Source of the DNA: Escherichia coli
GTDB taxonomy: Bacteria; Pseudomonadota; Gammaproteobacteria; Enterobacterales; Enterobacteriaceae
Direction: 5' to 3' (one strand)
DNA: 64,000 nt
Assembly: GCF_013122565.1 (NCBI RefSeq)
Contig: NZ_CP053258.1
Both the position numbers and the translations under genes were made by a program. The notes below the pieces were generated by a model that was given only the letters and a program-made list of their open reading frames with translations, was not told the origin of the DNA and searched no databases. Of this stretch, positions 26,729 through 26,760 are shown piece after piece. Every line of letters starts with the position of its first letter. Within the stretch, counting starts at the first letter, position 1.

Positions 26729-26760
26729 GTCGGATATGACGCATGTGCGTCTTATCCGAC
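26729..26760. terminator. Long palindromic hairpin between convergent uppP and cca (REP-like)
   Basis: gtcggatatgacgca-tg-tgcgtcttatccgac: 15 bp arms with a single mismatch. Confidence 0.65.

Follow-up and report, generated by a model that had tools for sequence, protein, structure and literature searches.

What is the long palindrome between the convergent genes uppP (bacA) and cca of an Escherichia coli chromosome, and does it end transcription from both sides? The palindrome lies in a 64-kb stretch of E. coli DNA (hereafter the window, meaning the whole stretch that was analysed), and an earlier note made from the sequence alone had described it as near-perfect, with 15-bp arms and a single arm mismatch, and had suspected a REP-family variant serving as a bidirectional terminator.

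The palindrome between uppP and cca

The open reading frame list of the window places uppP/bacA on the + strand and cca on the – strand, converging on an intergenic gap of 80 bp, and homologous E. coli loci are annotated as bacA and cca in the same arrangement. The reading frames end at 26716 (+) and 26797 (–), which confirms that the palindrome lies between convergent uppP and cca. UppP is the undecaprenyl-pyrophosphate phosphatase and is linked to bacitracin tolerance. The features of the gap and its immediate surroundings are the following.

26714–26716, + strand: uppP/bacA stop codon (TGA), 12 nt before the hairpin core and 8 nt before the extended stem
26725–26763, + strand: extended hairpin of the uppP transcript, made of the core stem and three flanking pairs (UAG with CUG), –23.5 kcal/mol
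26729–26760, – strand: REP core, a 32-nt imperfect palindrome (14-nt arm, 4-nt centre, 14-nt arm) whose canonical orientation (GTAG side 5′) is the – strand
Same core, – strand: hairpin of the cca transcript, made of the core and two more pairs (GG at 26761–26762 with CA at 26726–26727) with a one-base bulge at 26728, –22.1 kcal/mol
26736–26737, + strand: positions 8–9 of the left arm, the conserved REP bulge; AT here, GC in canonical REPs
26743–26746, + strand: loop, ATGT; TTGT in three other alleles read
26761–26764, + strand: flanking tetranucleotide, degenerate CTGA (TCAG on the – strand); canonically CTAC (GTAG on the – strand)
26761–26796, no strand: AT-rich spacer of 36 nt from the hairpin to the cca stop codon, 70–94% identical among alleles
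26797–26799, – strand: cca stop codon (TAA); the hairpin lies 36 nt downstream on the – strand
26800–26950, + strand: stretch with C in excess of G (GC skew –0.27 to –0.30), antisense to the cca 3′ end; candidate rut-like Rho-loading region for uppP read-through RNA

The palindrome itself reads GTCGGATATGACGCA-TG-TGCGTCTTATCCGAC, and a repeat search returned two arms of 15 nt each (26729–26743 and 26746–26760) that are 93% complementary and separated by 2 nt, in agreement with the arms and the single mismatch originally described. Our own scan of the window, set to arms of 15 nt with no more than one mismatch and 0–8 nt between them, revealed no other palindrome of this quality. Moreover, none of equal quality was found in 20 composition-preserving shuffles of the window, and an analytic estimate put the chance expectation for such a palindrome at approximately 0.02. 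The palindrome is genuine, and chance is excluded as its origin.

Folding of a 41-nt segment as RNA, one of the checks the earlier note had proposed, yielded strong hairpins on both the + strand (–23.5 kcal/mol, z = –6.2) and the – strand (–22.1 kcal/mol, z = –8.2), while the corresponding single-stranded DNA hairpin reached approximately –13 kcal/mol. Because a loop of 2 nt is impossible, the physical hairpin consists of 8 bp, a 1×1 mismatch, 5 bp and a 4-nt loop. The notional 15th pair of the arms is due to a substitution in this loop (A at 26744), a variant common to 146 genomes. At the bulge (26736–26737), one position is now A–T paired and the other is the lone mismatch (T·T on the + strand, A·A on the – strand).

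Two small open reading frames that run across the palindrome (26727–26888 and 26743–26922) were set aside as mechanical frames antisense to cca. Elsewhere in the window, two perfect hairpins with arms of 11–14 bp lie at 7589–7622 (CACTGTCCGGCAAAAACGATTGCCGGACAGTG) and 49863–49893 (AACCCGGCAAACATGTGTTTTGCCGGGTT). A tRNA gene at 14354–14426 (– strand; 73 bits) has the anticodon loop CUCAUAA (CAU anticodon) and may be ileX, which it resembles; the perfect 12–14-bp hairpin that adjoins its 3′ side (14314–14343) is probably the tRNA terminator.

Relationship of the palindrome to REP elements

The suspicion of a REP-family variant was borne out by the arms, length and fold that the palindrome shares with REPs, by a sub-threshold match to the naRNA4 model and by the other REP arrangements found at the same site in other strains. 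A degenerate pattern built from the arms (GTCGGATNNGACGC, 2–6 nt, GCGTCTTATCCGAC) was scanned in one genome per species across approximately 100,000 species, and all 33 matches fell in Escherichia (E. coli, E. albertii, E. whittamii and two unnamed Escherichia species) save for three on probable contaminant contigs. The window arms are identical to those of these 33 canonical copies except at the bulge positions: arm positions 8–9 are GC in 32 of the copies and GT in the remaining one. The core is followed by CTAC in 28 of the 33, and the commonest form among them is GTCGGATGCGACGCTG(G/A)CGCGTCTTATCCGAC followed by CTAC. Compared with the canonical Escherichia copy GTCGGATGCGACGCTGGCGCGTCTTATCCGAC followed by CTAC, the window core is alike at 27 of 32 positions and has the same 14+4+14 layout.

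Matches to a 39-nt query over the hairpin turned up in 5,425 of the 5,426 complete E. coli genomes, and the median genome had 11 such places (E ≤ 10). The genome-wide search for copies that had been put forward as a check thus succeeded for relatives of the hairpin, while the exact variant turned out to be single-copy. The best match outside the bacA–cca locus (88.6% identity over 35 nt) lies in the prpB–prpC gap of K-12-like strains, where inverted Z2-like units are interspersed with four tandem copies of TGTCGGATGCGACGCTATGCGTCTTATCCGACCTAC.

Canonical Y, Z2 and TCGGAT-type REPs were predicted to fold into the same 8 bp, 1×1 mismatch, 5 bp and 4-nt loop, at –18 to –22 kcal/mol. Since their mismatch occupies the same mid-stem position, the single arm mismatch of the palindrome is a conserved irregularity of E. 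coli REPs. The size and geometry are likewise exactly those of a canonical REP, and the claim that the stem is far longer than that of an ordinary terminator did not hold, as mapped E. coli convergent-gene terminators often have stems of 11–20 pairs; mapped terminators of this type in the same chromosomal region have stems of 9–13 bp.

The hairpin matched the Rfam naRNA4 model (RF02564) with 28.1 bits, against a gathering threshold of 59.5, and three other single-REP sites in the window scored 29.8, 32.8 and 41.2 bits. Such a sub-threshold score is expected because the model was built from the Y–Z2 pair of REP325, and the gap holds a single unit. Other Rfam matches, to eukaryotic snoRNA and lncRNA models, were discarded as chance matches.

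Canonical REPs occur elsewhere in the window at 12560–12595 (Z2), approximately 12610–12624 (an adjacent inverted partial Y arm), 13357–13391 (Y) and 15099–15132 (Y), so that the host belongs to a REP-bearing lineage. On the – strand, a hairpin of classical terminator type that ends in a U-run (15057–15085) comes directly after the Y REP at 15099–15132.

The hairpin lies inside the convergent 80-bp gap, the extragenic position expected of a REP, and it is the only unit there. It is not a BIME, which consists of at least two alternating REPs with linker motifs. Judged by arms, layout, fold and position, the element is very probably a solitary derivative of a Z-type REP, a palindromic unit of the E. 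coli group 2 REPs.

Changes at the transposase signals

E. coli REPs are imperfect palindromes with GTAG at their 5′ side and an AA-GC bulge mid-stem, and in vitro binding and cleavage by TnpA_REP tolerated no substitution in GTAG, while bulge closure severely reduced transposase activity (PMC8266576). In its canonical orientation (– strand), the window element reads TCAG-GTCGGATAAGACGC-ACAT-GCGTCATATCCGAC. The place of GTAG is thus taken by TCAG; where the window has CTGA on the + strand, one related allele has CTAA. Moreover, the change from GC to AT turned one bulge position into a Watson–Crick pair, which is why the palindrome looks near-perfect.

The substitution of GTAG by TCAG, together with the half-closed bulge, implies that this copy would no longer be a substrate of the REP transposase (TnpA_REP/RAYT). 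It is probably a decayed and immobile remnant that the REP-associated transposase no longer processes, and because GTAG, which defines transposase-recognised REPs, is missing, we filed it as a decayed solitary derivative instead of an active REP.

Allelic variation of the bacA–cca gap

Among the E. coli strains compared, the length of the bacA–cca gap varied from 79 to 187 bp, and its contents varied as well.

K-12: 180 bp, three REPs (Y, Z2, Y)
Strain MZ1211: 90 bp, one Y REP
Strain FY26: 187 bp, with a first unit (at ~630–665 of the FY26 sequence compared) that joins a window-type left arm (TGTCGGATATGA) to a Z2-type right arm (GCGTCTTATCAG)
Strain SMN013SH2: 162 bp, a different GC-rich palindromic repeat
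Exact 80-bp type of the window: 146 of 5,426 complete E. coli genomes
79–80-bp relatives with the hairpin different at no more than one position: about 1,157–1,159 of the 5,426 genomes, including ST131 strains such as JJ2434
K-12 three-REP array, at least 80% covered: 2,508 of the 5,426 genomes (~46%)

On the left, the alleles all agree as far as GTGTCGGAT and then diverge inside the REP arm. The first unit of FY26 looks like the product of recombination between REP units, and on the comparison of these alleles the bacA–cca gap is a REP hotspot. In some E. coli strains, the REPs are replaced by a 162-bp GC-rich repeat (...CCCTCACCCTAACCCTCTCCCCGAAGGGGCGAGGGGA...), located at ~618–780 in one and at 2323–2484 in another of the sequences compared, which may be the enterobacterial BoxC repeat. 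A BacA protein identical to that of the window was found on seven contigs; contigs with the 80-bp gap and one contig with a gap of 162 bp encode it, indicating fast turnover of the gap content.

The hairpin of the window was present in approximately 24% of the 5,426 complete genomes, always once per genome; by comparison, the K-12 REP array matched at least 38 places per E. coli genome. The 1,157 genomes are those that differ at one position over 37–38 nt of the window, and in the three relatives whose alleles were read the hairpin differed by T for A in the loop and by nothing else. Approximately 1,305 genomes had a best match of at least 90% identity, and 1,303 of these differed at no more than one position over the 37–38 nt. 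Within the four hairpin alleles, all 28 stem positions were invariant, whereas the 36-nt spacer was 70–94% and the flanking coding DNA 96–98% identical. This contrast between stem and spacer hints at constraint on the stem, for a set of four sequences with no compensatory changes.

The variable block extends into the last two cca codons (26797–26805, – strand). Specifically, the Cca C-terminus reads ...CPKSD in the window, ...CPKPD in strain Z1323HEC0462 and ...CPKPE in K-12, and the cca stop codon is TAA in the window and in Z1323HEC0462, and TGA in K-12. The best match to the bacA–cca region (26300–27200) among the 5,426 complete E. coli genomes was 97.0% identical, and over 20 kb of the window (28000–48000) the nearest complete genomes were 98.2–98.5% identical, so the lineage looks poorly represented in this collection. 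The name REP225 for the K-12 cca–bacA array was dropped, as it was absent from the supplements and literature searched and the flanking names REP224 and REP226 are only suggestive. The copy of NC_000913.3 that was used carries no REP features even at the known REP224, making missing repeat annotation uninformative.

Transcription termination around the gap

A consensus scan of 26300–27200 returned no intrinsic-terminator-like sites, and the 8 nt after the stem (CTGAACGG on the + strand, ACACTATC on the – strand) contain no U-tract on either side. An intrinsic (Rho-independent) terminator was therefore ruled out.

The broader claim of a bidirectional terminator also failed to find support in K-12, which carries a different, three-REP allele of this gap: neither a called terminator nor a Term-seq end lies there, and a Rho-dependent stop lies inside antisense cca. 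Specifically, the K-12 cca–bacA gap (3,203,130–3,203,309) has no entry among the 306 bidirectional terminators mapped by SEnd-seq, the list running directly from #256 at 3,194,537 to #257 at 3,209,490 (Table S16, bioRxiv 10.64898/2026.03.23.713779). Term-seq of K-12 under three conditions recorded no 3′ end at 3,203,1xx–3,203,3xx, and a Rho termination region was reported on the bacA strand with its peak at 3,202,814 (score 5.5, p = 1.9e-7), where the reads upstream/downstream amounted to 55/11 without and 102/113 with bicyclomycin (PMC7815308). This peak is located approximately 315 nt inside cca, in antisense, and is equivalent to window position ~27,110.

Other convergent-gene hairpins in the same chromosomal region are documented 3′-end sites, whereas the K-12 cca–bacA gap is not: the long, near-perfect window hairpins at 9171–9203, 39996–40028 and 41745–41772 correspond in sequence to K-12 entries #258 (REP230, on the ygjH/ebgR side), #255 (zupT) and #254 (REP224, ygiC/ygiD).

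In K-12, convergent genes flank approximately 60% of the REPs, a REP is present in 207 of 704 convergent gaps, and 78 REPs fall inside the 306 mapped bidirectional terminators (bioRxiv 10.64898/2026.03.23.713779). According to the same preprint, REP325 is a partial Rho-dependent terminator as well as a stabiliser, its fragments of 2–4 hairpins show no Rho dependence, REPs generally do not lengthen half-lives, and REP effects are variable and context-dependent (bioRxiv 10.64898/2026.03.23.713779). Rho-dependent transcripts have furthermore been found to end, after exonuclease trimming, at stem-loops without a U-tract that have C in excess of G and rut sites just downstream, and REPs were explicitly proposed as such protective stem-loops (PMC6061677).

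Proposed role and alternatives

Taken together, we consider it fairly likely that the palindrome is a solitary, partly decayed Z-type REP in the shared 3′ UTR of uppP and cca, which acts as a barrier to 3′ exonucleases and as a partial, Rho-assisted attenuator. The mechanism outlined here is drawn from the REP family and from K-12, which carries a different (three-REP) allele. Both mRNAs would be transcribed through the hairpin, each then carrying a stem of approximately –22 to –23.5 kcal/mol without a U-tract, at which RNA polymerase would not be efficiently released. Transcription of the uppP strand would continue into the C-rich stretch antisense to cca and be stopped by Rho a few hundred nt further on, after which PNPase and RNase II might trim the RNA (3′-to-5′) back to the hairpin, which would thus set and protect the mature 3′ end. 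The hairpin may in addition pause polymerase and so attenuate transcription in part, and mirror-image logic would apply to cca. That one hairpin in this way provides both mRNAs with a shared 3′ cap and a weak attenuator seems plausible to us, with a slight leaning in its favour. The absence of a stable Term-seq 3′ end from the K-12 gap counts against a protective cap, although low expression could explain it.

A true bidirectional terminator would instead release polymerase arriving from both directions, possibly aided by head-on collisions. In its favour, the hairpin is symmetric and forms a strong fold on either strand, and some of the 78 REPs found within SEnd-seq terminators are single units with almost no flanking U (for example #160 REP137, #182 REP162 and #263 REP240), so that by analogy the idea is not far-fetched; collisions of polymerases between convergent genes are also the subject of a preprint. 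Yet neither side of the stem has a U-tract, the scan for terminator-like sites was empty, the K-12 list skips the gap between #256 and #257, and K-12 bacA-strand RNA passes the REPs to reach a Rho-dependent stop inside cca. Moreover, SEnd-seq 3′ ends by themselves cannot separate termination from trimming. On the K-12 evidence, a self-sufficient bidirectional terminator in the strict sense is unlikely, and we rate the reading as a whole as quite improbable. The element might also be a neutral fossil, a dead REP left by past turnover at the hotspot and devoid of selected function. The lost GTAG, the half-closed bulge and the reportedly variable, context-dependent effects of REPs would fit this, as would a site that tolerates very different contents: approximately three quarters of the genomes are without the hairpin, and identical BacA proteins go with 80-bp and 162-bp gaps. 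Against this stand the 28 stem positions that are invariant in four alleles while the adjacent 36-nt spacer diverges by 6–30%, and the 1,303 of ~1,305 genomes with a match of at least 90% that differ at no more than one position. A transcribed stable 3′ hairpin would also impede exonucleases whether selected or not. We consider a neutral fossil rather unlikely.

Another alternative concerns translation, in that the ribosome terminating on uppP would be hindered by the hairpin, leading to mRNA cleavage, trans-translation and less UppP. REPs lower translation of the upstream gene only if located less than 16 nt from its stop codon, according to a summary of Liang et al. 2015 (PMC12306157). Counted from the uppP TGA, the distance to the core stem is 12 nt and that to the extended stem 8 nt, whereas the first complete REP of K-12 lies approximately 45 nt further from the bacA stop codon, so that the effect would be allele-specific. 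However, this criterion is positional only, with 446 such candidates listed without testing by RepRanger, and such down-regulation would be compatible with the 3′ cap role and not exclusive of it; we regard it as doubtful. Finally, the palindrome could work as DNA, being a dimeric-regulator operator, a gyrase, IHF or Pol I site, or a cruciform. It is a near-perfect dyad with a single-stranded DNA fold of approximately –13 kcal/mol, and BIME arrays reportedly bind gyrase and IHF. REP homology, however, fully explains the symmetry, the unit is single and without BIME linker motifs, and it lies at gene 3′ ends with no promoter-like site nearby. A promoter or operator was specifically rejected, as the consensus scan found no sigma-70-like site near the hairpin, and a DNA-level protein site is hardly credible here.

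A more far-reaching idea, and a long shot, is that the solitary hairpin, placed 12 nt beyond the stop codon of uppP, constitutes a natural allelic expression switch relative to K-12, with its first full REP ~45 nt further on. If so, collision of ribosomes with the hairpin would lower UppP translation in approximately 24% of genomes and the immobilised REP would set the amount of antisense RNA into cca. Cell-wall lipid-carrier recycling and tRNA-CCA repair would then be tuned from lineage to lineage by REP turnover, with coding and promoter sequences left unchanged.

For the preferred reading, a partly decayed REP that protects 3′ ends and attenuates in part, the kind of feature is already known: no repeats of E. 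coli are more abundant or have been known for longer than REPs, of which this is a decayed copy in a typical position. Beyond correct annotation its value is modest, as a clear natural case of REP turnover and a convenient locus for studying effects of REP content on flanking genes, which recent work on REPs has proposed. It also cautions that a long intergenic palindrome between convergent genes is not automatically a terminator.

Comparison with known systems

The bidirectional terminators mapped by SEnd-seq resemble the window hairpin in being symmetric hairpins in convergent gaps, of similar energy and stem length, several entries of the list being lone REPs with little flanking U; the orthologous gap of K-12 nevertheless has no entry. 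The Rho-dependent, exonuclease-trimmed 3′ ends (PMC6061677) likewise combine a stable hairpin without a U-tract with a following excess of C over G, and the K-12 locus has a downstream Rho stop. In contrast to these trimmed ends, the window hairpin is known here from its sequence, and its role is proposed by analogy. REP325, the basis of naRNA4, would have the same dual role, and the window hairpin is homologous to the Z half of that model (28.1 bits). REP325 has 12 hairpins, however, and is Rho-dependent only as the full array, so that no more than weak termination is expected from the single hairpin of the window.

The closest relatives are the E. coli Z-type REPs of z2 length, such as those in the prpB–prpC array and in the K-12 cca–bacA array. 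The window hairpin differs from them by CTGA instead of CTAC, by AT instead of GC at the bulge and by ATGT instead of TGGC or TGAC in the loop. It is, moreover, solitary and not paired in a BIME, and unlike them its exact variant is single-copy per genome. It shares with them the arm sequences (GTCGGAT..GACGC and GCGTCTTATCCGAC) and the 32-nt core of 8 bp, mismatch, 5 bp and 4-nt loop, and like them it is extragenic, occupying the 3′ UTR between convergent genes at a site where other strains have REP arrays.
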